Of a stretch of DNA of 64,000 nucleotides, positions 17,498 to 39,102 are shown one piece after another. Every line of letters begins with the position of its first letter. The stretch's first letter is position 1. The stretch lies in the NCBI GenBank assembly GCA_042572045.1, contig JBHPFI010000002.1, positions 92,245-156,244 of the forward strand. Direction: 5' to 3'. The notes beneath the pieces were generated by a model that had not been told where the DNA came from, did not search any database, and saw only the letters and a list, made by a program, of their open reading frames with translations. Made by a program: the position numbers and the translations under genes. Source of the stretch: Candidatus Omnitrophota bacterium. GTDB lineage: Bacteria; Omnitrophota; Gorgyraeia; Gorgyraeales; Gorgyraeaceae.

Positions 17498-17545
17498 ATT
17501 ATACACCCAAATAAAAACCCCATGCAACTTTTAAGGAGATTTTTT
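17498..17545 (-). promoter_or_regulatory. hairpin/promoter module upstream of the FDH operon
   Basis: Minus strand reads AAATCTCCTTAAAAGTTGCATGGGGTTTTTATTTGGGTGTATAAT. That is TTGCAT (17522-17527) -N18- TATAAT (17498-17503) with a TG extension. It belongs to the same family as the modules at 20832, 29397, 36763 and 39053. Confidence 0.55.
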
Positions 17546-17679
17546 ACAGGCTGCGGAATTATATCCTCTATTTTTTATAAGCGAATAAATCATTAAGGGT
17601 TTCAACATAACCCTTTTTCCCTACTGTTATAATGTCAAGATATAATTGGTAGCTGTCCCTAGTTATATAAAGTGTGACA

Positions 17680-19515
17680 TTATTTTGATTGTGCGCTACG
17701 GCTCACTCGCTTACGATCTACTTCTGCTAAATGCAATTTCCGGAGCCTTATATACTTGGGAGTTATCTCAACCAATTCATCATCCTCAATAAACTCAAGA
17801 GCAAACTCAAGGGTAATTTGCCGCGGAGGTATAAGCGCAATCGCGTCATCACTTCCTGAAGCGCGCATATTAGTTAATTTCTTTCCACGTAAGGCGTTTA
17901 CAACAATATCGGTCCCTTTGTTGTTTACACCAACAATCATCCCCTCATATAGCTTTTCTCCTGGTTTAACAAAAACCTCACCACGTGCCTGTAAATTATA
18001 AAGCGCATACGCCACCGCATCACCGCATCCATGTGAAATGAGAACACCGCTTTGACGTGTAGGCATATCTCCTTTATAGGTCTGATATTCAAGGAAATTT
18101 TGGTACATGATGCCGCTACCTCGGGTCATCATAAGAAACTCGCTTCTAAACCCAATTAATGCCCTTGAGGCAATAACAAATTCCATACGGATAGTGCCGG
18201 AAGATGTTGTCTTTAGGTCGCGCATTTGAGCCTTGCGAACTCCAAGCTTCTGCATAACAACGCCCTGATGCTCATCTTCCACCTCGATTATCACCTCTTC
18301 AACAGGCTCGAGCGTTTGACTGCCCATTTTCTTCAAAATAACCTGCGGTATGGAGACCTCCATCTCATACCCTTCACGACGCATTGTTTCAATAAGAATA
18401 GCAAGGTGCAGTTCACCACGACCTGAAACCTTTAACCGCTCAGTTCCCGCAATCTCCTCGACCTTGATGCCAACATTGATCATAGCCTCATGCTCAAGAC
18501 GCTCCCGTATATGTCGTGATGTTAAAAATCTGCCGCCATCCTTGCCTGAAAGAGGGCTTGTATTATGAGAAAAATTCATAGAGATCGTGGGCTCATCTAT
18601 CTTAATAGTAGGTAATCCTTTTGGCTCACTAATACACGTAAGCGTCTCTCCAACCTCTACGCCTTCTATACCGGAAATTGATATAATATCTCCTGCTATA
18701 GCCTCATTGGCCTCAATACGAATTAGTCCACGATACTTCATAATCTTAGTTGCCTTGCCTCTGGCAACAGTCCCATCGCGTTTCACAAGCGCCACGGGAT
18801 CCCCAACGCGGACAGCCCCATGAAAAACCCTCCCTATAGCAATTCGCCCAACATAAGAGTCATAATCAAGCATTGTAATCAGCATCTGAAAAGGCAGATC
18901 AGGATTAGCTATCGGCGGCAATACCCTATGCAGGATAGTCTCTAAAAGAGGCTTCATAGAGTCTCTCGGCTCATCAAGATCAAGGGTCGCGTAACCATCC
19001 TTTCCTGAAGCGTAAACAATCGGAAAATCAAGCTGTTCATCAGAAGCGTTCAGCTCACAAAAAAGATCAAATGTCATATCCGCCACTTCATCCGGGCGGG
19101 CATGAGGACGATCAAGCTTATTTATCACAAGTATTGGTTTTAAATGCAACTCGAGCGACTTCTTTAAAACAAATTTAGTCTGCGGCATAGGGCCTTCAAA
19201 AGCATCAACAAGAAGAAGTACGCCGTCAACCATCTTAAGAATACGTTCGACCTCACTGCCAAAATCAGCATGCCCAGGCGTATCAACAAGATTGAATTGT
19301 ACCCCTTTATATTGGAGAGAAGCGTTTTTAGACAGAATAGTAATACCTCTTTCTTTCTCAAGAGGATTTGAGTCCATTACGGCAACCTCACCCTCTTTAA
19401 ACTCATAGGCGCCTGTATATTTAAGGAGGGCATCTACAAGGGTAGTTTTCCCATGGTCAACGTGCGCTATAATCGCGAGGTTCCTTACATCTTTTCTTCT
19501 TTTTTGATTTGGCAT
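17680..19515 (-). CDS. typA: translational GTPase TypA/BipA
   Basis: 611 aa. AHVDHGKTT, DTPGH and NKLD G-motifs. Confidence 0.95.
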   Translation of the reverse strand: MPNQKRRKDVRNLAIIAHVDHGKTTLVDALLKYTGAYEFKEGEVAVMDSNPLEKERGITILSKNASLQYKGVQFNLVDTPGHADFGSEVERILKMVDGVLLLVDAFEGPMPQTKFVLKKSLELHLKPILVINKLDRPHARPDEVADMTFDLFCELNASDEQLDFPIVYASGKDGYATLDLDEPRDSMKPLLETILHRVLPPIANPDLPFQMLITMLDYDSYVGRIAIGRVFHGAVRVGDPVALVKRDGTVARGKATKIMKYRGLIRIEANEAIAGDIISISGIEGVEVGETLTCISEPKGLPTIKIDEPTISMNFSHNTSPLSGKDGGRFLTSRHIRERLEHEAMINVGIKVEEIAGTERLKVSGRGELHLAILIETMRREGYEMEVSIPQVILKKMGSQTLEPVEEVIIEVEDEHQGVVMQKLGVRKAQMRDLKTTSSGTIRMEFVIASRALIGFRSEFLMMTRGSGIMYQNFLEYQTYKGDMPTRQSGVLISHGCGDAVAYALYNLQARGEVFVKPGEKLYEGMIVGVNNKGTDIVVNALRGKKLTNMRASGSDDAIALIPPRQITLEFALEFIEDDELVEITPKYIRLRKLHLAEVDRKRVSRSAQSK

Positions 19516-19593
19516 ATTCTTTTAGTTTTATTTTTCCGCAACAATTCCTCTGCTATTTTAAAACCGTGTCTTCTGAAGACACGTTACCCCCCC

Positions 19594-19629
19594 AAAAAAA
19601 ATAAAAAAGGCGTTAGTCTTCTTACGCCT
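19594..19629 (-). terminator. rho-independent terminator after the zinc-ribbon gene
   Basis: Minus strand AGGCGT-N10-ACGCCT followed by TTTTTTATTTTTTTT. Confidence 0.6.
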
Positions 19630-19739
19630 TTTGGGATAAGTTACTTTGTGTTTTGAATTTGTGTAGCTTTCTTCCTTGCGCTCTCTTTTTTTAATGGTGA
19701 GCAAGGTAGCTGAAGGCTGCCACGTCGAACCACAAATAT

Positions 19740-20240
19740 TTAAGCACGTTTTTTTCTACGTGCAAAAAATGACTTCTTCTTTTTAACGGGCTTCTGCCTT
19801 TTCTCAAGCCTCTTTTTATCGGAATAACGTTCCCGGGAAAAATCTCTTTGTTCGGGCTTATTATTCCGGTTTGCGTTAAACAGGTTGCCTTTTTTGCGCT
19901 TTGAAAAACAATCCTTGCAGTATACCGGACGGTCTCCGCTGGGTTTAAAAGGGACTTCGCATTCTTTGCTGCAGTCTGCGCAAATAACCCGAGTATAAGT
20001 TCTTTCCCTGGGGCCACTGTCTTGTTTTCCCCTGTCATGGCGATGAAAGTGATTGAAGCGCTGGGAAGGCTTTTGGGAATAGCTTTTCTCAAAAGGCCTT
20101 TTTGAAGACTGGCTGATTAAGATATCCAGCTTCTTCTCCATGGCACTCAACTGCTGCTGCACTTTATTAATGCAGTCAGCTACACCCGGCTCATCCTGCG
20201 GCGCGACTAATAAACTTTTGTGTTTAAAACGCTTTTTCAC
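19740..20240 (-). CDS. basic zinc-ribbon protein (CxxC-x16-CxxC), long paralogue
   Basis: 166 aa with a GTG start. Core is ICADCSKECEVPFKPSGDRPVYCKDCFSKRK, flanked by K/R-rich tails. Confidence 0.6.
   Translation of the reverse strand: MKKRFKHKSLLVAPQDEPGVADCINKVQQQLSAMEKKLDILISQSSKRPFEKSYSQKPSQRFNHFHRHDRGKQDSGPRERTYTRVICADCSKECEVPFKPSGDRPVYCKDCFSKRKKGNLFNANRNNKPEQRDFSRERYSDKKRLEKRQKPVKKKKSFFARRKKRA
19894..19985 (-). repeat. 92-bp perfect direct repeat, copy A (zinc-ribbon core)
   Basis: Identical over 92/92 nt to 20447-20538, checked base by base. Confidence 0.9.
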
Positions 20241-20430
20241 ATTACACCTTTCTTTTTACCTACTGTAACACAAATAAAAACCCCTTGCGACTTATTTTGC
20301 TACAAGGAGTTAAAAGTAGTGGCCTTTCGACGCGTTCGTCGCTTCGCTCGCTTGCTCACCGCCACCGAACGATCCGTAAAGCTACCTTTGCGGATCTGCT
20401 AAAAGAAAGAAGCTAACAAAATCTATTCTT

Positions 20431-20601
20431 TTAACGCCTTTCGTTCTTGCGCTTTGAAAAACAATCCTTGCAGTATACCGGACGGTCTCCGCTGGGTTTA
20501 AAAGGGACTTCGCATTCTTTGCTGCAGTCTGCGCAAATCGCCTTGTGCATCTCCCGTGACCCTCCGCCGTATCCACCACCACTACCTCCTTGATATCCCA
20601 T
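20431..20601 (-). CDS. Gly-rich zinc-ribbon protein, short paralogue (56 aa, absent from ORF track)
   Basis: ATG at 20601 with a GGGGGT RBS. Translation is MGYQGGSGGGYGGGSREMHKAICADCSKECEVPFKPSGDRPVYCKDCFSKRKNERR*. Confidence 0.6.
   Translation of the reverse strand: MGYQGGSGGGYGGGSREMHKAICADCSKECEVPFKPSGDRPVYCKDCFSKRKNERR
20447..20538 (-). repeat. 92-bp perfect direct repeat, copy B
   Basis: Identical to 19894-19985. Confidence 0.9.
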
Positions 20602-20831: not shown

Positions 20832-20901
20832 ATTATACCTCAAACAAAAATCCCTTGCAACCTATTTTGTTAAAAGGGATTAGAAGTATTGGCTCCCCGG
20901 G
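20832..20901 (-). repeat. island boundary 1 (outermost): hairpin/promoter + tRNA-Asn 3'-end core
   Basis: Core TGGCTCCCCGGG at 20890-20901 is 12/12 identical to 39111-39122. Hairpin TCCCTT/AAGGGA. Minus-strand TTGCAA (20855-20860) -N17- TATAAT (20832-20837). No conserved arm. Confidence 0.75.
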
Positions 20902-20982: not shown

Positions 20983-22014
20983 CTACTTACTCCTTACCCT
21001 CTTAATCATAAAGTCTACGGCCCTGGAGCAATTTGTAGGCTCTATTGCCACCCCGGGATTACTTAACAGAAACACCCTAAATATTTCATCTGCAAACCCC
21101 TGGCCTATTGTTTTAACTTGATTAAAATCCAAAATTACTACTTTAAATTTGTTTAGTCCCGTAATGAGCCTCCTGGCCTGAGACCTTGAAGTATATTCTA
21201 CGTTCTTATGATAAAGTTTAACGATTACTTTTGTTTTGTTAAATTTGTAGTCACTGTCGGTGTACTGTGCGAAAATCGTACTTATATCTTTTCTGGTATT
21301 TTTATTTACTTGAAAGTATACTTTTGTACCCTTACGATACTTTATTTCATTTGTATAAATATCCTTTACCTTGTTATCGATAATCAGTCCTATCTTTGCA
21401 CTTTCAATCTTGAAGACATCTGCAGTTTTTGAAGTAAAAAATATACCTTCTCCTGTATGCTTTGACGGCATTGTAGTTCTTTTGCCTTTTAAAATTTCGG
21501 TTAGCGCATCATACTCATCGGCTAGCTTAAACTTTTTCTGTATATGCTTAAAAATACCTATGCCCTTATCAGTAACGTTAAAACTCGCCGTGTCGCTAGT
21601 TAAAGTTAGTAAAATATCTATATATTCGGAACTGGAATGCTCGATTGCGTTATTAAGCATTTCCGTAAAAGCGTATCTTATAATATCCTGAGTATTCTTT
21701 TGTAATTTTTTTAAAGACGGCATTCTATAGATAACCCTATTATAGACAAAATCCTCTTGTATTTTTTTGTTCCTCAGCCTTACCTTGTATACCTTGTCCT
21801 CTTTTTTTAATTTTCTTGCCTCTTCTTTTGAAAACAAAATATAATATGAGCCTCTTGTCTTGCCGATCTTGAGAAGATTTCGCGATTTAACTAATTCACG
21901 TAAATGTTGATGGGCCGCCTGGCGTGAGATATTACAAATTTTGGCAATGGCGTCGCTGTTTATGCTACCCTTGCTCCTAATTTGTTTCAATATTAAATCT
22001 TTTATGTTTCGCAT
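20983..22014 (-). CDS. HTH + histidine-kinase-like ATPase + STAS-like (DUF4325-type) protein
   Basis: 343 aa. N-terminal wHTH (ISRQAAHQHLRELV), an ATPase N-box-like EMLNNAIEH, and a C-terminal DUF4325-like segment. Confidence 0.6.
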   Translation of the reverse strand: MRNIKDLILKQIRSKGSINSDAIAKICNISRQAAHQHLRELVKSRNLLKIGKTRGSYYILFSKEEARKLKKEDKVYKVRLRNKKIQEDFVYNRVIYRMPSLKKLQKNTQDIIRYAFTEMLNNAIEHSSSEYIDILLTLTSDTASFNVTDKGIGIFKHIQKKFKLADEYDALTEILKGKRTTMPSKHTGEGIFFTSKTADVFKIESAKIGLIIDNKVKDIYTNEIKYRKGTKVYFQVNKNTRKDISTIFAQYTDSDYKFNKTKVIVKLYHKNVEYTSRSQARRLITGLNKFKVVILDFNQVKTIGQGFADEIFRVFLLSNPGVAIEPTNCSRAVDFMIKRVRSK

Positions 22015-22086
22015 ATTTTGAGTATACCATAATTGTAAAGTATTGTAAAGTATTTATTAGTTTTATTGTAAAGTAAGTAAAAACAA

Positions 22087-22131
22087 AAAATCCCAAGTGA
22101 AAACTTGGGATTTTGTCCAATATGGCTCCCC
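22087..22131 (-). repeat. island boundary 2: hairpin + core
   Basis: Hairpin AAATCCCAAGT-GAAA-ACTTGGGATTT at 22087-22112 with a T-run on the minus strand. Core TGGCTCCCCG at 22122-22131 (10/10). No conserved arm. Confidence 0.7.
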
Positions 22132-22377
22132 GATACATTCACTCATCAAACTACTTTTACGTATATATTTAGGTTCAAGGTTAATAGATATTGCTCGTAA
22201 TATTCTTTTTTATTGAACAACATATACGTCACATAGACTTACGCAACGCGTCTGGGGATTATGGGCATTATTCGAAACAGAGATAGATTTTTGATAACCT
22301 TCGAGTTATAATACGAACTATGGTTGCTCTTACATGATTCACGTCCCTATGATCAGAAATAATAATGCGAGGAAATA

Positions 22378-23376
22378 ATGGGATCGCAAAACGATATTCT
22401 GGTTAGTGTCGTAATTCCCTGTTACAATAGGCGGGATGATCTGCGCAGATGTCTCCAGGGACTTATTCTTCAGAAGCAAAACACATCGCACATTCCTGCA
22501 TTTGAGGTTATCGTTGTTGACAATGGCTCAGAAGATGGTACAGCCGATATGCTTCATACCGAATTTTCCTCTGTGCGTCTACTCCGAAATTCAGTAAATT
22601 TGGGTGCTTCTAAGGCAAGAAACCAGGCCTTAAAAATTATTTTGAATAAATATGTTTGGTTTCTTGACTCTGATTCGGTAGTTGAGAATTTAGATTCTCT
22701 TGTGTGGATGGTCAAAATAATGGAAGAAAATTACGACATCGGAAGTATTGGCGGTGAACTTATCAAAGATACTCAGGGCAAAGTAATTCTGAAAAGTAAG
22801 CGGATTCTCTTGAATGGCGAGACTGGAGCAAAGTCAATCGAACCTCATAAAGCTAAGCTCGTTAATTGTGACTATCTTGCGACTTGCAATTGTTTTACGC
22901 GACGAGAACTCCTCCTCAAAATCGGAGGATTTGACCCGGATTACTTCGTCTTTAGCGAGGATAAAGAGCTCGGGTTAAAAATCAAAAAACTTGGCTATCG
23001 TAATGTTTGTGATTACCGAACAGCCGTATTTCACAATATCACTTTTTCACAGCGAAGAAGTATTTTTTTGAAGTATCGTAACGTCATTAGGTTTGCGCTA
23101 AAAAATTTATCTATCTGCCAGATATTAATAATGCCTTTTTCAACCGTTCTTATAAAAATAAAGGTTGGAGAAGATGTTTATCGACAACTTAAGAAAGACG
23201 AACCAGCGGTTCTCAAGTATGTACCTAAGCATCTGTCTTTTTTTGGTAAGCTCTTTTTCTTAGGTGGTATGTATATTCTGGCATTACTTTGGGCTTATAT
23301 GTGGAACCTTTGGCATTTGTTTCCTACCTTGAAGGCGAGATTCAAAAGGAGGAATTATATAGAATATGATCCATAA
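22378..23376 (+). CDS. family-2 glycosyltransferase
   Basis: 332 aa. VVIPCYN...DNGSEDGT...DSD motifs. Confidence 0.8.
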   Translation: MGSQNDILVSVVIPCYNRRDDLRRCLQGLILQKQNTSHIPAFEVIVVDNGSEDGTADMLHTEFSSVRLLRNSVNLGASKARNQALKIILNKYVWFLDSDSVVENLDSLVWMVKIMEENYDIGSIGGELIKDTQGKVILKSKRILLNGETGAKSIEPHKAKLVNCDYLATCNCFTRRELLLKIGGFDPDYFVFSEDKELGLKIKKLGYRNVCDYRTAVFHNITFSQRRSIFLKYRNVIRFALKNLSICQILIMPFSTVLIKIKVGEDVYRQLKKDEPAVLKYVPKHLSFFGKLFFLGGMYILALLWAYMWNLWHLFPTLKARFKRRNYIEYDP

Positions 23377-24529
23377 ATTCTTTGGTATAAAAACCGAGCA
23401 ACGTCAAGGACTCTATAAAGCATTTTGTGCGCTTCCGAAAATTATTAAGAACCCTTTAATTAATATAGCTTGCTGGATAGGTAGGCATCAAATCAAATCT
23501 TTCTCTACGCCCCCCAGGCTTATCTGGTACGTTACCTCCCGTTGCAATGCTCGGTGTAGCCATTGTTTTTATGGCCGTCATATTAATCAGAAAGACGAAT
23601 TTACTATTGATGAATTTAAGAGGGTGGTTCGGAGCCTCGATACGAAACTTAGAGCGGTTAATCTTACGGGCGGAGAACCCTTTCTCCACGGAGATCTCCC
23701 TGAGCTTTGTCGTACTCTCGCTGAAATAAGTAAAACAGATTTAATTACACTCCCAACAAATGGGAGTAAGCCAGCCTCTATAGAGCTATCTCTCCAAAAA
23801 ATCCTCAAAACCGCTAAACTTAGGGTAAATGTTCAGGTTTCGCTGGAGGGGACGCGTGATGTTCACGATCAAATTTGCGGTATTTATGGCATTTTTGATA
23901 ATGCTGTCGAAACCGTACAGCGATTAAAAAAATTAAAATCCCACTACAAGAGACTCAACAATATATCAGTCATCACTACGCTCTCTTTGCAAAACGAGAA
24001 GTGCTTGTCAGAGTTAATGCGATTTGTCAGAGAAGAGCTTGGTGTTTTTCACAAGATTCAATTTATCCGTGGAGCTCATACAGATGTCTTTGGGATTGAG
24101 TTATGTGACTTGAGTGAACTCGATCCTTTACATCCAGAGAAACCGCACGATATTGTCGGTGTAGTAAATTTTTTAAGTAGAGATATTCTTCGATATAATA
24201 AAACTCTCCTAGCGCGTAAACAGATTGAACTTCTTTATCAAGCTGCCTCGATATTAACCAACAAGAAGCCAAGCGTAAATTGTCTTGCTGGACGTATTGA
24301 TGGTGTGATTTTTGCTAATGGTGACGTTGCTATCTGTGAGTTGACCAAACCTTTTGCTAATCTACGGGATTTCAGTTTTGACTTTCATAAACTATGGAAT
24401 AGCTCTCAAGCAAATGAGATGCGACGCAGAACCCAAAAATGTTTTTGTACGCATCCCTGCAATCTCACAACTTCAATGAGTTTTGATCCCCATATACTTA
24501 AAAAGCTTTCCGTTGAATATATACTGTAG
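23366..24529 (+). CDS. radical SAM protein with SPASM-like C-terminal Cys cluster
   Basis: 387 aa. CNARCSHC (CxxxCxxC) plus a C-terminal C..C....C...C cluster. Confidence 0.75.
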   Translation: MIHKFFGIKTEQRQGLYKAFCALPKIIKNPLINIACWIGRHQIKSFSTPPRLIWYVTSRCNARCSHCFYGRHINQKDEFTIDEFKRVVRSLDTKLRAVNLTGGEPFLHGDLPELCRTLAEISKTDLITLPTNGSKPASIELSLQKILKTAKLRVNVQVSLEGTRDVHDQICGIYGIFDNAVETVQRLKKLKSHYKRLNNISVITTLSLQNEKCLSELMRFVREELGVFHKIQFIRGAHTDVFGIELCDLSELDPLHPEKPHDIVGVVNFLSRDILRYNKTLLARKQIELLYQAASILTNKKPSVNCLAGRIDGVIFANGDVAICELTKPFANLRDFSFDFHKLWNSSQANEMRRRTQKCFCTHPCNLTTSMSFDPHILKKLSVEYIL

Positions 24530-24530
24530 C

Positions 24531-25976: not shown

Positions 25977-26047
25977 TTTTTATGTGAAACCCGCATAGCT
26001 CAGTTCTGTGAATTAAATGTCTTATCCAATCCTTATTAGCATTATCT

Positions 26048-28837: not shown

Positions 28838-28908
28838 AGATTTTATCACACCGCTAATAGCATGTCAAAGAAAAAGAGAGCTTGCCAAAAATGACAAACT
28901 CTCTTATC

Positions 28909-29046
28909 GTAACTTATTATATTTCAATAAGTTACATATCTTGGCTCCCTCAAGACTACGAGTTTCGCAACTTTTTGGAGGAGTTTAAGAATTGGTGTTT
29001 GAGTAAAGAAGCGACCAAATTGTCATTATTCCGACTTACAGCCTAA
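28909..29046 (-). repeat. island boundary 3: hairpin + core + conserved arm
   Basis: Hairpin GTAACTTATT/AATAAGTTAC. Core TGGCTCCC at 28942-28949. Arm in the plus frame reads WLPQDYEFRNFLEEFKNWCLSKEATKLSLFRLTA*. Confidence 0.75.
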
Positions 29047-29396: not shown

Positions 29397-29445
29397 ATTA
29401 TATATAAAACAAAAACCCCTTGCAACTTATTTTGTTATAAAAGAG
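29397..29445 (-). promoter_or_regulatory. hairpin/promoter module (partial hairpin)
   Basis: Minus strand reads AAAATAAGTTGCAAGGGGTTTTTGTTTTATATATAAT. That is TTGCAA (29420-29425) -N17- TATAAT (29397-29402). Confidence 0.55.
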
Positions 29446-29744: not shown

Positions 29745-29747
29745 TCT

Positions 29748-30170: not shown

Positions 30171-30180
30171 ATCTTTCTCC

Positions 30181-30360: not shown

Positions 30361-30370
30361 ATCGTTTCTT

Positions 30371-30399
30371 ATTATACGCTGCTATAGAATGGCAGTCAA
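30371..30399 (-). promoter_or_regulatory. sigma70-type promoter of the cupin cassette
   Basis: Minus strand TTGACT (30394-30399) -N17- TATAAT (30371-30376). Confidence 0.6.
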
Positions 30400-30421
30400 T
30401 TAACAAATAAATGCAAACAAA

Positions 30422-30561
30422 ATAACCCACTGCAACTTATTTAATCACAGTGGGTTATGTAATTTTGGCTCCTCTTCATGGACGAGTTTCGAACTTATTT
30501 GAGAGAGTTTAAGGTGTTTCGTTATACAGAAGAGCTGAATAGGTCAATCCAAAATCCAACA
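30422..30561 (-). repeat. island boundary 4: hairpin + core + diverged arm
   Basis: Hairpin ATAACCCACTG/CAGTGGGTTAT. Core TGGCTCC at 30467-30473. Arm reads ..MDEFRTYLREFKVFRYTEELNRS... Confidence 0.65.
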
Positions 30562-30864
30562 TTAAGATTGTACAAATTTTAGTTCAGTGCCATCATTTGG
30601 ACAATAATAAACATCTGAACTAAAGGTTTGGCCACATTCTGGACAGAATCTCTGCATATTTGAATCTCCTATCAATGCCCCTCCTGCAGCACCTACTGCT
30701 GCTCCTATAAGAGCACCCTCAGCTGCATGGTCTGACTGATGTCCTATAATCGCTCCAGCACCTGCTCCTACAAGACTACCTATCCCAGCTCCTTTTTGAG
30801 TACCTGTACAGCCTACAATAAACACCAACGAAATAAAAAGTAACACTAATAGATTCTTTTTCAT
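30562..30864 (-). CDS. lipoprotein with glycine-zipper and C-terminal zinc-ribbon
   Basis: 100 aa. Lipobox LVFIVGC, GxxxG repeats and CPECG...CPNDG. Confidence 0.6.
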   Translation of the reverse strand: MKKNLLVLLFISLVFIVGCTGTQKGAGIGSLVGAGAGAIIGHQSDHAAEGALIGAAVGAAGGALIGDSNMQRFCPECGQTFSSDVYYCPNDGTELKFVQS

Positions 30865-31373: not shown

Positions 31374-31428
31374 GACTTTTGCCCTCCTTTCACTAACTTA
31401 GACAAATAAAGCTCTCTAAAAGTTCCAA

Positions 31429-31932
31429 TTAGAGAAAATATTCTTCTATTGCTGTATTATAATCTACATTTTCTCCATTTGAGCCGTAACTGTTCTCTGT
31501 AAATAAATATGCTAGATACTCAACCTGTTCTCTTGACTGCATATTAACAATTTCTTGTTTGCTGGAATAAAACTTTGTAAATATGCCCAAGCAAAGTACT
31601 AATACCATCGCAGTCGCAACGGCAAAGATAGGTTTTGGGATATAGATAAAATTCCTTAGCTTATCCATTAAATTATGCGTGGGGTATGGTCTTGTTTCTT
31701 GCTGGGTTTCAGCTTCTATTTTCTCTTTTATGCGATACCAGATTGAATCAAGCGGCTCTTTTGTCTCTATTTTTCTAAATGGTCCTATAACGGATTTTGT
31801 AACCATAGACGCGAATTCTCTACAAGCTCTGCATTGTGCCAAATGTTCTTCTATGAGCTCTTTCTGAGTTGCTTTTATCTCTTTATCTGAATAATCTGTA
31901 AGAATCATATTTTTAACTTTTTTACACTTCAT
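31429..31932 (-). CDS. anti-sigma factor (zf-HC2 type), single TM
   Basis: 167 aa. H...C..C motif (HLAQCRAC). Overlaps the sigma gene. Confidence 0.7.
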   Translation of the reverse strand: MKCKKVKNMILTDYSDKEIKATQKELIEEHLAQCRACREFASMVTKSVIGPFRKIETKEPLDSIWYRIKEKIEAETQQETRPYPTHNLMDKLRNFIYIPKPIFAVATAMVLVLCLGIFTKFYSSKQEIVNMQSREQVEYLAYLFTENSYGSNGENVDYNTAIEEYFL

Positions 31933-32467
31933 TTTTTACCACCTCTCTTCTTAGAACTATTAGTTTTTGCCTGGCTCTCTTAAGTCTTGAACGCACTGTA
32001 TTAATATTAATCCTTAATACGCTGGATATCTCTTTATAGCTAAGTCCCTGGATTTCCTTCAATACTATACAGGTCTTGTGCTCTAGGCTAAGCTTACCCA
32101 GAAGATATCTAACTAAGTTCTCATTATCATGATCTTTTCCCTTATGGTCAGGACTAGTATTTAGTGCAAACTCATAATGTACTCTTTTATTTTCTTCCTT
32201 TGAGATTTTCTTTTTGAAATTTATGGCTGTATTCACAGCAATCCTGTAAAGCCATGTCTTCAAGGACGAACGAAAATTAAAGCTTCTTAGGTTCTTAAAT
32301 ACTTTAATAAATACCTCTTGGGTTATTTCTTCAGCATCTTTGCTATTATTGGCAACTCTAAATGCTACATTATATACAAAGCTCGAGCTCGACTTATAGA
32401 TTTCCTCAAATGCTCTCATATCTCCTTGAGACGCCTTTATTATTAAATCATTGTCTATTTCGACCAT
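31922..32467 (-). CDS. ECF (group 4) sigma-70 factor
   Basis: 181 aa. Region 2 (DAEEITQEVFIKVF) and region 4 HTH (LSYKEISSVLRININTVRSRL). Confidence 0.85.
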   Translation of the reverse strand: MVEIDNDLIIKASQGDMRAFEEIYKSSSSFVYNVAFRVANNSKDAEEITQEVFIKVFKNLRSFNFRSSLKTWLYRIAVNTAINFKKKISKEENKRVHYEFALNTSPDHKGKDHDNENLVRYLLGKLSLEHKTCIVLKEIQGLSYKEISSVLRININTVRSRLKRARQKLIVLRREVVKNEV

Positions 32468-32618
32468 CTCCTGCCCCTAATAATATTAGACAAAGAAAAC
32501 TCTCTAAAAGTTCCTTTATATTATAACATAACCAAAGACAAAGATAACCTGTTAGAGCATAACAGACTATCTCTGCCTTACTTTATTGAAAATGTTAGAT
32601 TAAAAATCTAAATTTGTT

Positions 32619-33233
32619 CTACTTACCATACATAACTTTGAGCTGTTCTACAGATGGAAATTCATAGTAAAATTCACCTTGCGGTCCAACAAACCCATCT
32701 CCTAATTTGTTCAATGTTACCGCTGTATAACTACCATTCGCATTAGGGATATTTACTGTATAACTATCTTCTGAATCTTTAGAATTAGATTCTATAACCT
32801 TTACTTCCTTTGGAAGCTCGACAATTTCATAAACTGGGTCGGGGATGACAATATATCTTCCTTTTTTTCTAACATAATAAATATCGTTGTAATAATAATA
32901 GGCATTACCTTTAATAACTATAGTTTTGTGGCCTTTTGGTAAAGCAGTAACTATAGCTCCTCTTGGTGCATCAACAATTATATACCCCGAAGGAGTCCTT
33001 TTGTAAAAATATCCATGATGATAATAATACTCTACTCCTGCATGAATAATTACTTTCGCTATTAGCTCAGGTAAGCTTACTATTTTTCCACGATAAGGAT
33101 GATGATGGTGACGGTGCTGTCTATGTCTTATGGATTTTTTTTTGCTTGCGAAAGCATCTACAGAATAAACTGATAAAAAACTACACACAACTATACTCAT
33201 AACAACCGTTCTTATAATCTTTTTTGTTACCAT
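32619..33233 (-). CDS. secreted His/Tyr-rich protein, unknown function
   Basis: 204 aa with a signal peptide. HRQHRHHHHP tract and YYY-rich beta repeats. Confidence 0.5.
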   Translation of the reverse strand: MVTKKIIRTVVMSIVVCSFLSVYSVDAFASKKKSIRHRQHRHHHHPYRGKIVSLPELIAKVIIHAGVEYYYHHGYFYKRTPSGYIIVDAPRGAIVTALPKGHKTIVIKGNAYYYYNDIYYVRKKGRYIVIPDPVYEIVELPKEVKVIESNSKDSEDSYTVNIPNANGSYTAVTLNKLGDGFVGPQGEFYYEFPSVEQLKVMYGK

Positions 33234-33346
33234 TTTGCCTCCTTTCTTAGTTATGTTTCATAATGAAATTTCTTTTTAATAACTTAGACAACCAAAATTA
33301 TAAAAAAGTTCCCTATCTATAATATTTTTAAAATATGGAAATAAAA

Positions 33347-33466
33347 AAACCGTTGTAACTTATTCAATTACAACGGTTTAGAAACAGTGGCTCCCCCCAA
33401 GACTACGAGTTTCGCAACTTTTTGGAGGAGTTTAGGGATTATTGCTTATCGCACGAAGCAAGAAAA
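33347..33466 (-). repeat. island boundary 5: hairpin + core + arm
   Basis: Hairpin AAACCGTTGTAA/TTACAACGGTTT. Core TGGCTCCCC at 33388-33396, followed by extra Cs that break the frame. Arm reads DYEFRNFLEEFRDYCLSHEARKL. Confidence 0.75.
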
Positions 33467-33832
33467 TTAGTGACAGCTATGGTTAATACATGCATTATCC
33501 ACGGTAATTTCTTCTAATTTACCTTCTTTGTATTTTTTGATTATTTCTTCTACTGTTCCGGCATTTGCTCTATAAGCTTTAATACCACCTTCATTAAGCT
33601 TTTGAACTGCCCTAGCTCCCATCCCACCGCATACTACTGCATCAATCCCCTTATTATCTAATGCTTTTAGTGGGTGGCACATTCCGTGCATATGTTGACT
33701 ATCGCCATTGTTAATAACTTCAAATGCTCCTTTTTCATTATCATAGATTAAAAAATAAGGAGCGCTCCCAAAATGAGCATTAACTTCTGACTTCAAGCCT
33801 TCATTTTCTACTATCGGAATACATATTTTCAT
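33467..33832 (-). CDS. NifB/NifX-type (dinitrogenase FeMo-cofactor-binding fold) small protein
   Basis: Start at MKICIPI (ATG 33832, sharing 1 nt with the upstream stop codon). HFG.A..F and GIDAVVCGGMG motifs. Confidence 0.7.
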   Translation of the reverse strand: MKICIPIVENEGLKSEVNAHFGSAPYFLIYDNEKGAFEVINNGDSQHMHGMCHPLKALDNKGIDAVVCGGMGARAVQKLNEGGIKAYRANAGTVEEIIKKYKEGKLEEITVDNACINHSCH

Positions 33833-34305
33833 CAAACTGCCCTCCCACATCTACCTCTACCACGACCTCCGCCCCCACCTGTCCTCGCCCAACCTCTATC
33901 TTGTGGCGCTCTATGAATATTTGAGCTGCTACACTTGGGGCACACATTTGGTCTGCCAGCTCCATATGGCGAAGTCCATTCATTTTTACAATCATAACAA
34001 ACAAAATATCTCTCCATCATTTTAACCACACCCCCTTCTATTTTTAATGCTTTACTATTAACTAATGCATCTGCTATTTTTCTATGTGCAGAGGAAATAA
34101 TATTTCCGAATGTTTGCCTTGAAACATTCATCTTTTTAGCAGCATCTTCTTGATACTTTTCTTCCAAATCAGCAAGTCTTATTGCCTCAAGTTCATCCAT
34201 AGTTAAATCAACTTCATCTAATGAATCAACAGGAATACCTCTGGGCTTAAAATAATTTGCATTAGGATTACAACGAACTCTCCTACATCTAAAAGGTCTT
34301 GGCAT
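33832..34305 (-). CDS. DUF134 regulator fused to C-terminal zinc-ribbon and RGG tail
   Basis: 157 aa. The first 95 aa are paralogous to 28500..28802. They are followed by CYDC...CPKC and GGGGGRGRGRCGR. Confidence 0.75.
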   Translation of the reverse strand: MPRPFRCRRVRCNPNANYFKPRGIPVDSLDEVDLTMDELEAIRLADLEEKYQEDAAKKMNVSRQTFGNIISSAHRKIADALVNSKALKIEGGVVKMMERYFVCYDCKNEWTSPYGAGRPNVCPKCSSSNIHRAPQDRGWARTGGGGGRGRGRCGRAV

Positions 34306-34320
34306 GTTATACCTCCATAG

Positions 34321-34340
34321 TTATTGGCATATGCCAATAA
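34321..34340. promoter_or_regulatory. 20-bp perfect palindrome, candidate operator of the second DUF134 gene
   Basis: TTATTGGCATATGCCAATAA lies immediately downstream of TTGACG (34364-34369) -N16- TATACT (34342-34347) on the minus strand. Confidence 0.6.
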
Positions 34341-34387
34341 TAGTATATCATATCTATAATTTTCGTCAAGATTATTATGTAAAAATA

Positions 34388-34430
34388 AATTGGCGCCAGA
34401 TAAAAAAATATCTGGCGCCAATTTTGGCTC
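34388..34430 (-). repeat. island boundary 6 (weak): hairpin + 6-nt core
   Basis: Hairpin AATTGGCGCCAGAT/ATCTGGCGCCAATT. Only TGGCTC (34425-34430) matches the tRNA end, and there is no arm. Confidence 0.45.
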
Positions 34431-34798
34431 GGGAGGTGGGGATATAGGACAGTTTAATCTCAGTATTTTGGCTGTATATATGGAGCAGGTTTTAGGGTCA
34501 ATTTTAGACTTTCGGCAATATCAGAGATAGAAGTTGTAGAGATATATAGCGCTTCAAGGCATGCTCGAACCATCAAAAACACTGTAAATTTGTCCAATTT
34601 TGTCCATCAAACATTATATAAAATTTATGTAACTATATTTAAAATAAGGAGGTGTATCAAATAGGTGTGGTTGTCCTGGACATTATCAAAAAAGTAGTTT
34701 TTACCTAGTTTAATACAAAACCTTTACTTAAAGAATCAGATATGCTATAATAAAAAATGTTGGGTTTAAATGGTTAACTAAAAAAAGGAGGTGACACA

Positions 34799-34906
34799 TG
34801 GCAAAAACTAAGAAGGCAAGATGTCCGGCTAAAACAAAAGAAGGCAAGGCATGTAAAAGTCGTGCATCTGGAAAATCTAAATTCTGCATTAGTCATAAGA
34901 AATAGC
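34799..34906 (+). CDS. 35-aa basic CCCH zinc-knuckle peptide (absent from ORF track)
   Basis: AAGGAGGTG RBS. Translation is MAKTKKARCPAKTKEGKACKSRASGKSKFCISHKK*. The promoter TTTACT-N17-TATAAT lies upstream. It is the only plus-strand gene in this part of the island. Confidence 0.45.
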
Positions 34907-34938
34907 AAAACGGGTTATTTATTTAAGTTTTTTCTTCC

Positions 34939-34980
34939 TGGCCCTTCGACGCGGCCCCTTCGGGGCCTTACTCAGGGCCA
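34939..34980 (+). other. GC-rich two-tier hairpin with UUCG tetraloop
   Basis: TGGCCCT-tcgacgc-GGCCCC-TTCG-GGGGCC-ttactc-AGGGCCA. It lies 30 nt after the small ORF stop. Confidence 0.5.
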
Positions 34981-34993
34981 AATTTGCCAAAAG

Positions 34994-35127
34994 AAAAGCC
35001 TCTGCTTATTATAACATAAGAGAGGCTTTTCCTACTGCAAATTTGGCTCCCCGCATTAGATGAGTTTCGCAACTGGTTATATGCTGAAGAAGCTAATAAA
35101 TTATATAAAGAACCGTTGTTAACCTAA
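34994..35127 (-). repeat. island boundary 7: hairpin + core + short-variant arm
   Basis: Hairpin AAAAGCCTCT/AGAGGCTTTT. Core TGGCTCCCCG at 35044-35053. Arm reads WLPALDEFRNWLYAEEANKLYKEPLLT*. Confidence 0.75.
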
Positions 35128-35193
35128 AAGTGATGGGTGTAAGATTTCTCAAATCTTTCAACTGATTATGCAAAGTATGTTATATATTTTTTA

Positions 35194-35727
35194 TTAGGTT
35201 GGTGTTGCGGTACCACCTAAAATAGAAAACAATAACATAAAGATTAACGCCTGAATAACCCAACCAATCGCGCAAACTCCCACAGCTCTTAACGTGTTCT
35301 TATAATCGAGTGCTTGTCTAACCGCAATGACCATTGCCGTTAGCATCCAAATTGAGGCCCCTAGAAAAACAATCCCTGTCAGTCCTGGGATAATGCCCAA
35401 TACCCGAATCAAACCCGGCGAGGTCGAAAAACCAATGGTTCGCAGCATCTCTCCCATATCTGCCTTGGTCTGAGATTCCGGAAGAAGTCTTGTACCGATA
35501 AAGTAAGTAAGAAAAGCCCATACATACCAGCTGATAAGAGCGACAATTGTCCCCATGAGGATTCCACCAAGGCCTCCTTTTGCAATGGTTCCTATTCCGG
35601 CGGCTATACTAGAGAGAATAACTACCCCCGTGGCCTGTCTCATCGCCGTAGTGTCAGCTTCAACCTCTTCATACAGCTTAACATCTAGTTTAGCAGCACG
35701 AATAATACGATCGTTAAAATCAGCCAT
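35194..35727 (-). CDS. Yip1-family integral membrane protein
   Basis: 177 aa and 5 TM, with an N-terminal cytosolic helix. Confidence 0.65.
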   Translation of the reverse strand: MADFNDRIIRAAKLDVKLYEEVEADTTAMRQATGVVILSSIAAGIGTIAKGGLGGILMGTIVALISWYVWAFLTYFIGTRLLPESQTKADMGEMLRTIGFSTSPGLIRVLGIIPGLTGIVFLGASIWMLTAMVIAVRQALDYKNTLRAVGVCAIGWVIQALIFMLLFSILGGTATPT

Positions 35728-35867
35728 TTCAATCTCCTTTCAAGTTTTGTTTAGATTAGTCCTCGTGCTCCGGACTCAGGAATCTTTATCTTGGAAGTTC
35801 TTGTACCGTTTTGAAACTTAGCTATCAATGTGTCTTATGGCAATCTTCAAACTGTCCCTTTTTTCTA

Positions 35868-35975
35868 CTAGTGTGTTTTTTCTTGTTTTTTCCTGTTTGC
35901 TTCGTTTTTTGCGTTTTTTGCTTTGTTTACTTGTTTGTTGTGTTTATTCTTATCTTTCCTACCTTTATCGCCCAT
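35868..35975 (-). CDS. 35-aa highly basic peptide (absent from ORF track; tentative)
   Basis: AAGGAGGAA RBS. Translation is MGDKGRKDKNKHNKQVNKAKNAKNEANRKKQEKTH*. The sequence is low complexity. Confidence 0.3.
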   Translation of the reverse strand: MGDKGRKDKNKHNKQVNKAKNAKNEANRKKQEKTH

Positions 35976-35994
35976 GGATATTCCTCCTTTTTTT

Positions 35995-36097
35995 CCTCCC
36001 CGTATTGGACGAGTTTCGCAACTGGTTAGAGGAGTTTAAGGATTATTGTCTTTCAGAAGAAGTCAGCAAGTTATGCAAAGAACTTGTTATCGCCTAA
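35995..36097 (-). repeat. island boundary 8: degenerate core + best-preserved arm
   Basis: TTCCTCCCCG matches the core at 8/10. Arm reads LPVLDEFRNWLEEFKDYCLSEEVSKLCKELVIA*, which is the end of ORF-track 35828..36097. No hairpin. Confidence 0.65.
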
Positions 36098-36762: not shown

Positions 36763-36925
36763 ATTCTACTCCAAATAAAAACCCCTTGCAACTTATTTTA
36801 TTGCAAGGGGTTATAAGTAGTGGCTCCCCTCGGACTACGAGTTTCGCAACTTTTTGGATGAGTTCAAAAACTATTGTATCACTGAATAAGCAAGCAAGCT
36901 ATATGAAGAACTCGTGATTGCTTAA
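36763..36925 (-). repeat. island boundary 9: promoter/hairpin + core + arm
   Basis: 36772-36829 is 58/58 identical to 39062-39119 (hairpin AACCCCTTGCAA/TTGCAAGGGGTT plus TGGCTCCCC). Arm reads WLPSDYEFRNFLDEFKNYCITE*ASKLYEELVIA*, with an in-frame TAA at 36887-36889. Confidence 0.85.
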
Positions 36926-37841: not shown

Positions 37842-38177
37842 TTATTTCGACTTAACTAAAAATAAAATACCAATAACGACTAGTGGCAAACTAATTATTG
37901 AAAATTGAACAAGCCCTTGGTAGGTATGAAAGAAAAACATGGAAACTATTGCCAAAGCTAGAAATAATATCCCACCTACTTTTGGCTTTTTCCATGCAAT
38001 AAATACAGCTACCCAAACTAAAAGCCAAGGAGCAATATTTGGCAGATTCAATAATACTCTTTTAATTCCATTTGCATTTTCTGCACCTGAAAGCATGGCA
38101 AAAACAGTAAATAGTCCCGCATAAAGTAAGACCAATATTTTTGAGATAGTCGTAGTCATAGAAAAAACTCCGGACAA
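37842..38177 (-). CDS. small 4-TM membrane protein
   Basis: 111 aa, hydrophobic throughout. Confidence 0.5.
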   Translation of the reverse strand: MSGVFSMTTTISKILVLLYAGLFTVFAMLSGAENANGIKRVLLNLPNIAPWLLVWVAVFIAWKKPKVGGILFLALAIVSMFFFHTYQGLVQFSIISLPLVVIGILFLVKSK

Positions 38178-38235
38178 ATACCCTGACCTTATTTTTTCCA
38201 GTATACCACAAATGAGCCTCTCGCACTATTCAATA

Positions 38236-38382
38236 AAAAATGCCTGACTTTTTAATCAGGCATTTTTATCGTAACTTCATTATATTTAATTAGTTACGAA
38301 ATATTGGCTCCCCGTATTGGACGAGTTTCGCAACTGGTTATATTCAAAAGAAACTAATAAATTCTCTCTGTCTCTTAAGTAA
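38236..38382 (-). repeat. island boundary 10: hairpin + core + short-variant arm
   Basis: Hairpin AAAAATGCCTGA/TCAGGCATTTTT. Core TGGCTCCCCG at 38305-38314. Arm reads WLPVLDEFRNWLYSKETNKFSLSLK*. Confidence 0.8.
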
Positions 38383-38388
38383 TGGCTT

Positions 38389-39030
38389 CTATATCCATTT
38401 AATGATAGGTTCTTTTTTGTTTGGTCGTATAATATCCAATGCACTGGAATCGCTTTTTGGATAACCAAGCACGACAGGTCCGAAGATTCGTTCATCATCT
38501 CTTAGTTCAAGGACTTGTTTGATATCAGCATCACCTGTCACCATCGCTCCAAAACCAACATAACAACTTCCCAAGCCAAAAGACGTTGCAGCAATCATAA
38601 TATTTTCACATGCAAGTGCACAACTTACATCAGACCCATTTGGACCTACGACAAAGATAATAACAGGTGCAAAATAATAAATCATGTCTTTGGGCTCATT
38701 CATCGCCTCATAAAGCCTCATTGCTTGCTCATACATTTCAGGCATAGTCTTTTTCATTCCTTCAACAAACTTTGACCTAATCGGTTCAGTGGTCTGAACG
38801 AGTTTTTTCTTAAACTCTGGGTCTTCTACAACAACAAACCGCCAGGGCTGAACAATATCTTCAGGCTTCTCATGCTTCTCCGACATAAAAGGCGCTTGAT
38901 TACCAGCCTTTATTATCGTTTTTATTATATCTTTTGGAATTGGTTTTGCCTCATAAGACCTGATAGAACGCCTGTTGTTTATGGCTTCAATTATTGAGCT
39001 TGTCATTGCTTTATTTTTTTCTGATAACAT
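38389..39030 (-). CDS. nitroreductase-family protein
   Basis: 213 aa. RRSIRSY FMN-binding N-terminus. Confidence 0.8.
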   Translation of the reverse strand: MLSEKNKAMTSSIIEAINNRRSIRSYEAKPIPKDIIKTIIKAGNQAPFMSEKHEKPEDIVQPWRFVVVEDPEFKKKLVQTTEPIRSKFVEGMKKTMPEMYEQAMRLYEAMNEPKDMIYYFAPVIIFVVGPNGSDVSCALACENIMIAATSFGLGSCYVGFGAMVTGDADIKQVLELRDDERIFGPVVLGYPKSDSSALDIIRPNKKEPIIKWI

Positions 39031-39052
39031 AAAACGTTACCTCCTTTGCAAT

Positions 39053-39102
39053 ATTTTACAACAAATAAAAACCCCTTGCAACTTATTTTATTGCAAGGGG
39101 TT
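39053..39102 (-). promoter_or_regulatory. tRNA-Asn terminator hairpin that also carries the -35 of the next promoter
   Basis: Minus strand reads AACCCCTTGCAA-TAAAATAAG-TTGCAAGGGGTT-TTTATTTGTTG-TAAAAT. That is TTGCAA (39076-39081) -N17- TAAAAT (39053-39058). Confidence 0.6.

Follow-up and report, generated by a model that had tools for sequence, protein, structure and literature searches.

A repeated terminator/promoter-like motif downstream of tRNA-Asn in Candidatus Omnitrophota as the probable attachment site of large serine recombinase elements

A stretch of 64,000 nt from contig JBHPFI010000002.1 of a Candidatus Omnitrophota bacterium (assembly GCA_042572045.1; this whole stretch is called the window hereafter) carries on its minus strand six copies of a short motif in which a hairpin, a T-run and promoter-like hexamers come together, and which an earlier note on this DNA had described as a free-standing, portable regulatory module. 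The six-site motif is one part of a larger repeated unit, at least 12 of which (forming about 12 junctions) are found between 39.1 and 20.3 kb in an array of ~19 kb, all downstream of tRNA-Asn(GTT). Comparison of the units with recombinase genes suggests, with a probability that we put at about 0.78, that the module is the attachment (att) site of large serine recombinase (LSR) elements inserted serially at the CCA end of tRNA-Asn. The motif would then be no free-standing module, and instead the distal half of a recombinase attachment site.

Each unit begins with a conserved block of 80-100 nt, followed by GGGGAGCCA, which is identical to the last 9 nt of tRNA-Asn and forms the core repeated in the units, then by a spacer of ~10 nt, a hairpin and a T-run. 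The conserved block AAAAGTTGCGAAACTCGTAGTC, 5′ of the copy of the tRNA end, occurs exactly three times against 0.00 expected, and an nhmmer profile recovers seven units in the window, all of them on the minus strand.

The unit as the 3′ end of a recombinase gene

On the strand opposite to the tRNA, every unit can be read, starting with the codons TGG CTC CCC.., as a peptide tail of the form WLPxLDEFRNWL..EEAxKLYKELxxxT that ends in a stop after 28 codons; in one subtype, which has an EEFKxYC insert, the stop comes after 34. An antisense coding signature is evident, the synonymous fraction being 0.32-0.55 in frame 0 as against 0.07-0.22 in the other frames, and the number of stop codons 13 in frame 0 as against 60 and 56 in the other two. 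Half of the intact tails lack an in-frame start and some have a stop directly upstream, for which reason an independent micro-protein was rejected as a general explanation of the tail; MSWLP.. versions of it do exist. Two very large protein searches with the tail peptide returned only orphan open reading frames (ORFs) of 29-120 aa in which it was always C-terminal, so that the tail could not be placed at the C-terminus of any known long protein until rare longer ORFs running through the hairpin were found. These ORFs (P0155, P0184 and P0187) continue through the hairpin to the tail as ..LLSNCTLNDGNLYPTYRKPFDLLAKGLSRSN-WLP-tail. Among their relatives, P0189 and P0199 contain the recombinase zinc-ribbon PF13408, one is labelled a site-specific DNA recombinase by its source, and those of full length (~490-550 aa) have Resolvase, Recombinase and Zn_ribbon_recom domains, which identifies them as LSRs. 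With the short LSR fragments, Pfam and NCBIfam gave nothing significant.

We examined 81 ORFs from the best-matching loci of this LSR family. Of these, 50 terminate within a tRNA gene of the other strand, and at a given locus a single LSR is combined with the 3′ end of a single tRNA. The targets comprise tRNAs for Pro, Asn, Asp, Arg, His, Gln, Glu, Ala and Ile, as well as Leu (in L047), and LSR ORFs ending in tRNA-Asn are found at seven loci (L057, L068, L069, L088, L090, L092 and L046). The C-terminus is conserved throughout the family alignment up to the W that is the antisense of CCA; beyond it follows either the tail (P0184, P0187) or an antisense-tRNA peptide such as WLPGQDSNLRPIG or WLPGQDSNLR, and P0199, which has a C-terminus of the latter kind, overlaps tRNA-Asn in L046. 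Judged by these sequences, the tail-ending LSR would be the un-integrated configuration and the LSR ending in antisense-tRNA codons the integrated one.

The hairpin can be accommodated in the same gene. Its arms AAGCCCTT and AAGGGCTT correspond to the codons KPF and KGL, and the window hairpin of the kind found at junction A (type A), when translated in the WLP frame, reads K-stop-KPLATYFIARGYK-stop-WLP, with a distance from K to W of 14 codons that equals that of KPFDLLAKGLSRSN-W in the LSR. By this comparison each unit, from the T-run to the stop of the tail, represents the fossil end of an LSR gene, ~45 codons in length. The antisense coding signature, the read-through ORFs and the K-to-W match together argue that the unit is the end of an LSR gene and, with it, the attP of a tRNA-targeting element. 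LSR fragments still attached to units measure 220, 166, 105 and 74 aa and are progressively 5′-truncated, the 220-aa fragment being retained by an array-internal unit in L132.

As an observation on the family at large, LSR relatives match at least 551 metagenome stretches, and in L052-L131 each subgroup ends in a particular tRNA. In L062-L067 the P-arm DNA is read in another frame (ending ..STCPIGRVQNF and a stop) and there is no overlap with a tRNA; these loci are probably un-integrated attP forms.

Structure and cargo of the array

The array is listed below from the tRNA inward; all features lie on the minus strand, "tail" denotes the antisense reading, and terminators and promoters are predictions.

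tRNA-Asn(GTT), 39111..39186 (-): anchor of the array (ARAGORN; Rfam RF00005, 75 bits)
Junction A, 39053..39110 (-): 9-nt spacer, 13-bp hairpin (39102-39070) and T-run, terminator of tRNA-Asn; promoter with -35 TTGCAA (39081-39076) and -10 TAAAAT (39058-39053), upstream of the nitroreductase gene (39030-38389)
Unit 38305, 38236..38382 (-): tail WLPVLDEFRNWLYSKETNKFSLSLK-stop (plus strand 38305-38382), core GGGGAGCCA (38313-38305), nhmmer E=1e-16; after the core an AT-rich palindrome GTAACTAATT..GAAGTTAC, then a GC hairpin with T-run (38267-38236)
Unit B, 36763..36925 (-): tail WLPSDYEFRNFLDEFKNYCITE-stop-ASKLYEELVIA-stop (plus strand 36821-36925), core 36829-36821, hairpin 36812-36780, -10 TAGAAT (36768-36763); upstream of the DUF6868 gene
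Unit 35993, 35993..36097 (-): intact 34-codon tail FLPVLDEFRNWLEEFKDYCLSEEVSKLCKELVIA-stop, degenerate core GGGGAGGAA, no hairpin after the core
Unit 35044, 34992..35127 (-): tail WLPALDEFRNWLYAEEANKLYKEPLLT-stop, core, 18-bp hairpin of different sequence (35034-34992)
Junction I, 34387..34431 (-): GAGCCA core remnant, 16-bp hairpin with T-run and a different stem (terminator scan, 34424); separate promoter TTGACG-16-TATACT (34369-34342), then the DUF134/NifX-like cassette
Unit H, 33347..33490 (-): frame-shifted tail (..PQDYEFRNFLEEFRDYCLSHEARKL..), core GGGGGGAGCCA, hairpin AAACCGTTGTAA..TTACAACGGTTT (33379-33347; -17.1 kcal/mol), a compensatory variant of type A
Unit G, 30422..30582 (-): diverged tail WLLFMDEFRTYLREFKV.., core GAGGAGCCA, hairpin ATAACCCACTGTGA..TTGCAGTGGGTTAT (30458-30422; -21.9 kcal/mol), a compensatory variant of the type A stem; separate promoter TTGACT-17-TATAAT (30399-30371) after the hairpin
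Module C, 29397..29445 (-): descending arm, T-run and -10 TATAAT only; upstream of the Fer2 gene (29375-29043)
Unit 28942, 28840..29046 (-): tail WLPQDYEFRNFLEEFKNWCLSKEATKLSLFRLTA-stop, core AGGGAGCCA, palindrome GTAACTTATT-N7-AATAAGTTAC (28936-28908), terminator hairpin (28905-28874), promoter TTGACA-17-TAAAAT (28868-28840)
Junction 22123, 22087..22131 (-): core GGGGAGCCA without tail, 12-16-bp hairpin with T-run
Unit D, 20832..20901 (-): 12 nt of the tRNA 3′ end (CCCGGGGAGCCA), imperfect type A hairpin (20882-20850), -10 TATAAT (20837-20832); upstream of two small-protein genes
Unit E, 20262..20400 (-): tail destroyed by a GC-rich insert, core remnant GGCCA (20324-20320), hairpin 20311-20281, -10 TACAGT (20267-20262); upstream of the zf and BipA genes, the equivalent in L037 being intact
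Module F, 17498..17545 (-): 25-nt partial copy with descending arm TTGCAT, T-run, then TATAAT (18-nt spacer), hairpin, core and tail all missing; in front of the FDH operon, whose first gene is NuoE-like

The repeat of the target end thus borders the segments: the tRNA and units 38305, B, 35044, H, 22123 and D carry GGGGAGCCA or a longer copy (GGGGAGCCA or CCCGGGGAGCCA in B, 22123 and D), the cores of G (GAGGAGCCA) and 28942 (AGGGAGCCA) differ from the tRNA end by one base, and in E a remnant, GGCCA, is left. At least six units with other hairpin sequences are interspersed among the six motif sites.

At up to two mismatches, TTGCAAGGGGTTTTT has six minus-strand matches in the window (17513, 20276, 20846, 29411, 36777 and 39067) against 0.21 expected, a count equalled by none of 100 shuffles; the two plus-strand matches are the ascending arms of copies A and B, and no further copy of this type is present elsewhere across the 64 kb. 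The six minus-strand sites of the earlier note are therefore confirmed, and the 58-nt identity that it had reported between the first two is exact (39119-39062 = 36829-36772, GGGGAGCCACTACTTATAACCCCTTGCAATAAAATAAGTTGCAAGGGGTTTTTATTTG) and begins within the acceptor strand of tRNA-Asn, at GGGGAGCCA. Its hexamer geometry with a spacer of 17-18 nt holds as well (TTGCAA-17-TAAAAT in A, TTGCAA-17-TAGAAT in B, TTGCAA-17-TATAAT in C and D, TCGCAA-17-TACAGT in E and TTGCAT-18-TATAAT in F). The motif also has a positional link to start codons, which lie 21-22 nt from the end of the -10 in A, B, C and E and 33 nt from it in F. That the spacer is invariant, put forward as unusual, is trivial, since its first 14 nt are conserved att/T-run sequence. 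A hairpin with the -35 in its descending arm, claimed for all six sites, is found in A, B, D and E, with fold energies of -20.4, -21.4, -12.8 and -15.6 kcal/mol and z-scores from -3.0 to -5.3; C (-5.3 kcal/mol, z -0.5) and F (-9.1 kcal/mol, z 0.0) have lost the ascending arm and retain only the descending arm and the -10. The argument that the copy before the FDH operon frees the module from the island is weak, given that F is a hairpin-less partial copy; it sits ~2.7 kb past E, beyond which no unit can be recognised, and on the downstream side of the zf and BipA genes.

When 16 type A hairpins were aligned, six of them from the window and ten from units in other genomes, the consensus was a 13-bp stem and a 7-nt loop, with compensatory changes at three stem pairs (one of them being CG in 7, UA in 4, GC in 3 and AU in 2 sequences). 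The U.G wobbles of the stem pair on the tRNA-sense strand only, where the other strand would have C.A mismatches. Together with the covariation, this strand specificity indicates that the structure is selected on the tRNA-sense strand, and such a stem followed by a T-run fits an intrinsic terminator. A stem-loop followed by T5 is present in A, B, D and E and absent from C and F, and a hairpin follows the unit in 64 of 69 units across all loci.

For the promoter half, we counted as strong any -10 with at least five of six matches, including A2 and T6, for which the background is 0.8% per position. Of 19 related hairpins, 9 have such a -10 at 16-18 nt past the hexamer of the descending arm (P=2.6e-10), and so do 4 of the 11 outside the window (P=1e-4). 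A scan with the sigma-70-type consensus gave 9-10 matches out of 12 in A, B, C and D; counted by hand, F has 10/12 and E, weaker, 8/12, neither of which the scan listed. Other junctions have a separate TTGACA-type promoter just past the terminator, which shows that promoters of this type are used by the organism and that every junction tends toward a terminator plus a promoter. Modules C and F, in which the hairpin is gone, still have the promoter half, a pattern that is expected if the descending arm is selected as a -35. The earlier proposal that one DNA both stops and starts transcription therefore gains from sequence statistics and comparison in the case of A, B, D and E, and fails for C and F, where the hairpin is lost. 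We regard the hairpin as a predicted terminator whose descending arm supplies the -35 and is followed by the -10, a reading supported by these comparisons; TTGCAA may be conserved also as part of the P′ half-site of the recombinase, and a TTGCGAA motif is present at the mirror position in the P arm.

A second type of junction was observed in which the CCA is followed by a perfect AT-rich palindrome, GTAACTTATT-N7-AATAAGTTAC, and then by a separate GC-rich terminator (window 38268-38296 and 28908-28936; L007 ~4322-4352, there behind a true tRNA-Asn). The motif AATAAGTTRC is common to junctions of this type and to the type A hairpin, where it lies in the loop and descending arm. Unit E (window 20325-20400) is broken by GC-rich inserts such as gtgagcaagcgagcgaagcgacgaacgcgtcg, and a 27-nt GC-rich palindromic insert lies in L012 (190-330), also within the hairpin; both look like small insertions, either similar to miniature inverted-repeat transposable elements or derived from repair.

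The junctions delimit cassettes of one to a few genes, the small ones measuring 0.36-3 kb and being co-oriented, and one block of ~6.7 kb (28.8-22.1 kb) with genes for ArsP, DsbD-like and radical SAM proteins. By Pfam, the cassettes encode a nitroreductase; DUF7670 with an LCM methyltransferase; DUF6868 with a glyoxalase-like protein; Yip1; DUF134 with a NifX-like protein; an ECF sigma/anti-sigma block; a cupin with a PQ-loop protein; Fer2; DUF134 with ArsP, DsbD-like and radical SAM enzymes; an HTH-HATPase protein; and two small proteins. Genes of the pyruvate:ferredoxin-oxidoreductase type are found upstream of tRNA-Asn. The G+C of the interval 22000-36000 is 0.34-0.38, compared to 0.40-0.43 in the flanks, which fits horizontally acquired cassettes.

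Several features of the cargo deserve mention in their own right. ArsP permease, ACR3-like SBF, DsbD-like, Fic and radical SAM proteins recur beside units in other genomes. The perfect palindromes TTATTGGCATATGCCAATAA and ATGAACATATGTTCAT (window 34321-34340 and 28820-28835) lie between the -10 and the ribosome-binding site and both precede DUF134 (HTH) genes heading their cassettes, where they look like autoregulatory operators. The small-protein cassette encodes a 56-aa Gly-rich CxxC zinc-ribbon protein (20431-20601) whose zinc-ribbon segment matches a 166-aa protein (PF23477; 19740-20240), the first after unit E, and both are conserved beside units in L001, L012, L027 and L037.

Relatives of the unit, defined by the pattern AGTTGCGAAACTCRT-N6-9-GGGAGCCA, were found in 37 genome loci, nearly all from metagenome-assembled or single-amplified genomes (SAGs) of Candidatus Omnitrophota, frequently in several copies per locus and then all on one strand; in L003, tRNA-Asn again heads a run of units. 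The window aligns with contigs of the Omnitrophota SAGs AM-312-B13 and AM-312-C06 at 72-91% nucleotide identity over the aligned blocks, and the proteins of genes that it has in common with AM-312-C06 (L012, L026) or L037 are 50-96% identical, mostly >75%. Cassette order and content differ between the window and both of these relatives: in AM-312-C06 the DUF134/NifX cassette is placed between the small-protein cassette and the DsbD/ArsP block, and L037, in which the block in common with the window starts at the core of unit D, has an intact unit and a different cassette at the position of the decayed unit E with zf and BipA.

In the SAG AM-312-B13 (JBHPHU010000001; L007 4360-4697, minus strand), the anticodon loop of tRNA-Asn(GTT) is split by a group I intron (Rfam RF00028, 81 bits, 4411-4638), and the gene was missed by ARAGORN; the window tRNA-Asn is without an intron. 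The unit has no similarity to this intron, so that an intron remnant was rejected, as was a decayed tRNA 3′ half, since the resemblance does not go beyond the acceptor end and a few T-arm bases. A known RNA family was likewise discarded, Rfam finding tRNA only at the gathering threshold and at E values up to 5, and so was a viral origin: the exact unit pattern has no match in IMG/VR viral contigs, and the LSR alignment includes only two viral contigs.

Serial integration and competing explanations

The course of events that we propose is as follows. The LSR gene of the element would run opposite in strand to the tRNA and would carry attP within its own last ~45 codons, the ..KPF..AKG.. codons corresponding to the hairpin, WLP to the antisense of GGGGAGCCA, and the following 25-31 codons to the tail. 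Integration at the CCA end would leave the tRNA body intact and place the spacer and hairpin of the element directly behind it, supplying tRNA-Asn with a new intrinsic terminator, while tail and core would be joined to the sequence formerly downstream of the tRNA. Serial integration would push older junctions downstream to give the ~19-kb array, and the recombinase bodies would be lost, so that only tail, core, hairpin and T-run remain at each junction; the module would be repeated because each insertion behind tRNA-Asn sets a copy at the new junction. A -10 in the cargo-specific DNA just past the conserved junction, 17 nt from TTGCAA, would complete a hybrid promoter of the sigma-70 type, and each cassette would be shielded from read-through and transcribed on its own. 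The decay series of LSR fragments, the L132 unit and the differing cassette order all support serial integration.

Several points weigh against this proposal. Neither Pfam on 40 ORFs nor a motif scan of all ORFs of at least 150 aa revealed a recombinase, whatever its type, in the 64-kb window, tblastn with the LSR fragments found nothing in it, and the 45 array loci examined contain no recombinase beyond short remnants. No full-length LSR with the DEFRNWL tail of the Omnitrophota type was found, the tail-bearing fragments being at most 220 aa and on short contigs, and the attR of intact tRNA-Asn LSR elements was not found within the flanks examined. To our knowledge, canonical LSRs recombine attP with attB only and attL is not a target, which means that serial insertion needs either an enzyme less selective about its sites, as CcrAB is, or an attL resembling attB. 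All type A copies lose homology at one and the same point (..ATTTG), and a common end is not predicted by independent erosion of recombinase genes. The terminator and promoter activities of the module are predictions from sequence; we infer actual termination and initiation, the route by which the recombinase genes were lost, and a crossover near CCA, the latter only from the switch of the LSR C-terminus between tail and antisense-tRNA peptide.

Some of these points would be accommodated if the cassettes had never carried a recombinase. In such an integron-like scenario, small recombinase-less circles with a complete attP (tail, core and hairpin) would have been inserted at tRNA-Asn in trans, which we consider possible while doubting it; equally tentative is the suggestion that the gene of the LSR acting in trans lies at another place in the genome or is supplied by a helper element. 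The missing recombinase in the window and the 45 array loci would be accounted for, as would the small size (0.36-3 kb) and common orientation of the cassettes, the end of homology at the same base in type A junctions, with 58 nt identical between A and B despite different cargo, and the attP-like order of P arm, core and P′ arm at internal junctions. On the other hand, the 5′-truncated LSR fragments of 74, 105, 166 and 220 aa at units indicate that some units are eroded complete elements, neither a circular cassette nor a trans-acting LSR was seen, and the scenario also requires an attP x attL recombination that canonical LSRs lack.

The earlier view of a free-standing terminator/promoter cassette that spread by its regulatory usefulness, without any link to recombination, is improbable in the light of these data. 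While the -35/-10 geometry with its fixed distance to the start codon, the promoter half without hairpin in C and F and the presence of the same architecture in other genomes would all suit it, the copies within the 64 kb lie only downstream of tRNA-Asn and are continuous with a copy of the tRNA 3′ end and a recombinase-derived tail, the hairpin is homologous to LSR codons, and the same position is taken elsewhere by units with quite different hairpins.

It is very improbable that the units are scars of classical tyrosine integrases (tycheposon- or P4-like) integrating in the T-loop or anticodon loop of a tRNA, even though tRNA-anchored tandem islands with scattered partial tRNAs are a known outcome of such events (10.1101/2020.12.28.424599) and L026 carries a true 20-nt tRNA 3′ fragment. 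No tyrosine recombinase is found near any array, the single motif match being an Xer-like gene in L011, and the window has no tyrosine-recombinase motif; moreover, serine recombinase genes have the unit as their 3′ end, element and tRNA sequence give way to each other at CCA rather than in a tRNA loop, and the identity of the window units to the tRNA amounts to only 9-12 nt of the acceptor end. The idea of repetitive extragenic palindrome (REP)- or MITE-like hairpins moved by a Y1 (IS200/RAYT-type) transposase, or of a true integron with attC, is hardly credible: Y1_Tnp genes do occur near units or LSR remnants in three independent metagenome loci and the arrays resemble integron cassette arrays, but neither the window nor L001-L037 contains a Y1 gene, the copies stay confined to the tRNA-Asn island within the 64 kb instead of being dispersed, no IntI was found, the unit sequences lack RYYYAAC/GTTRRRY boxes, and Rfam has no match for the unit. 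The Y1 genes concerned (PF01797; L038 11074-11412, L041 2710-3396 and L046 4413-4844) lie within a few kb of units or LSR remnants and have no homologues in the other loci, L001-L037, so that a Y1 link was rejected; they may be insertion sequence (IS) elements attracted to hairpins, or there by chance.

Implications and relation to known systems

The most far-reaching reading, which we offer as speculative, is that of an integron-like system of Omnitrophota and some other uncultivated lineages, in which small, recombinase-less, attP-bearing cassettes are stacked at the CCA end of tRNA-Asn by an LSR acting in trans, with the att site co-opted as terminator and -35 so that captured cassettes are insulated and expressed at once, and with two isoforms of the LSR. 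The LSR would bear the DEFRNWL tail when free and the antisense-tRNA tail when integrated, and this swap could serve as a built-in directionality switch. If true, it would constitute a second, mechanistically independent route to integron-type cassette arrays, with a serine recombinase and a tRNA gene as its components, in a phylum for which we know of no cultivated representatives and of almost no mobile-element biology. The att site could be selected for three jobs, as recombination half-site, as terminator of the tRNA or the previous cassette and as -35 of the next promoter, and the exchange of the tail on integration provides a testable idea on how the directionality of serine integrases is controlled. 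The LSR family, with at least 551 stretches and at least ten tRNA species among the 81 ORFs, is a possible source of site-specific integrases whose targets would be predictable and conserved. Annotators could read the short orphan ORFs of the WLPxLDEFRNWL type (192 protein-library clusters) as att scars and use them as cassette delimiters.

Among known systems, the SCC composite islands of staphylococci and enterococci resemble the array in the use of a serine recombinase, in the 3′ end of one conserved gene as target and in the presence of recombinase-less members. In SCC, the large serine recombinases CcrAB or CcrC act at the 3′ end of rlmH/orfX, and serial insertions generate tandem arrays with a repeat of the target 3′ end at each junction, many members being without a recombinase. 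In contrast, the target here is a tRNA CCA end, the cassettes are much smaller, the recombinase family is not Ccr, the attP lies inside the 3′ end of the recombinase gene, whose C-terminus consequently changes on integration, and the junction carries a predicted terminator and -35. An attP within a coding region of the element is also known from SSV-type archaeal integrases and from mycobacteriophages with integration-dependent immunity (attP in the repressor gene), where the free and integrated forms encode different proteins; those systems use tyrosine integrases, whereas here a serine recombinase appears to be involved and only its last 25-31 codons would be swapped for antisense-tRNA codons. 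Hybrid promoters at mobile-element junctions combine a -35 in the IS end with a -10 in the target or circle junction at a fixed spacing of 17 nt, and the junctions described here are alike in that the -35 comes from the conserved end of the element and the -10 from neighbouring DNA, but differ in that the -35 is inside the descending arm of a predicted terminator hairpin that is also part of the att site.

The tycheposon islands of Prochlorococcus are likewise anchored at tRNA genes, new elements pushing older ones inward and leaving partial tRNAs and degenerated elements scattered, and a minority of tycheposons use large serine recombinases (10.1101/2020.12.28.424599). The tRNA anchor, the inward displacement of older elements and the partial tRNAs are features that both have in common; most tycheposons, however, use tyrosine recombinases with att sites of ~40 nt inside the tRNA, and recombinases and replication modules are common in them. 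Neither a conserved fossil of a recombinase 3′ end nor a promoter function of the att site is reported for them (10.1101/2020.12.28.424599). Integron arrays (IntI, attI, attC) share with the present array the small, co-oriented, recombinase-less cassettes, each ending in a covarying structured repeat, whereas here there are no tyrosine IntI, no attC boxes and no common Pc, the repeat consists of a serine-recombinase fragment and a tRNA end, and every junction seems to bring its own terminator and promoter.

By their defining features, neither integrons nor tyrosine-integrase islands describe the array, and REP/RAYT systems probably do not do so either. Of the features expected of LSR att sites, homology to attP and repeats of the target end are present, and a recombinase gene beside the site was found neither in the window nor in the 45 array loci. 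Compared with all of these systems, four properties appear to be new: an LSR family specialised on the CCA ends of tRNAs with attP inside its own 3′ end, the exchange of the C-terminal tail of the recombinase on integration, very small cassettes bounded by the fossil of a recombinase gene, and an att site that, to judge from its sequence, doubles as a predicted terminator and -35.

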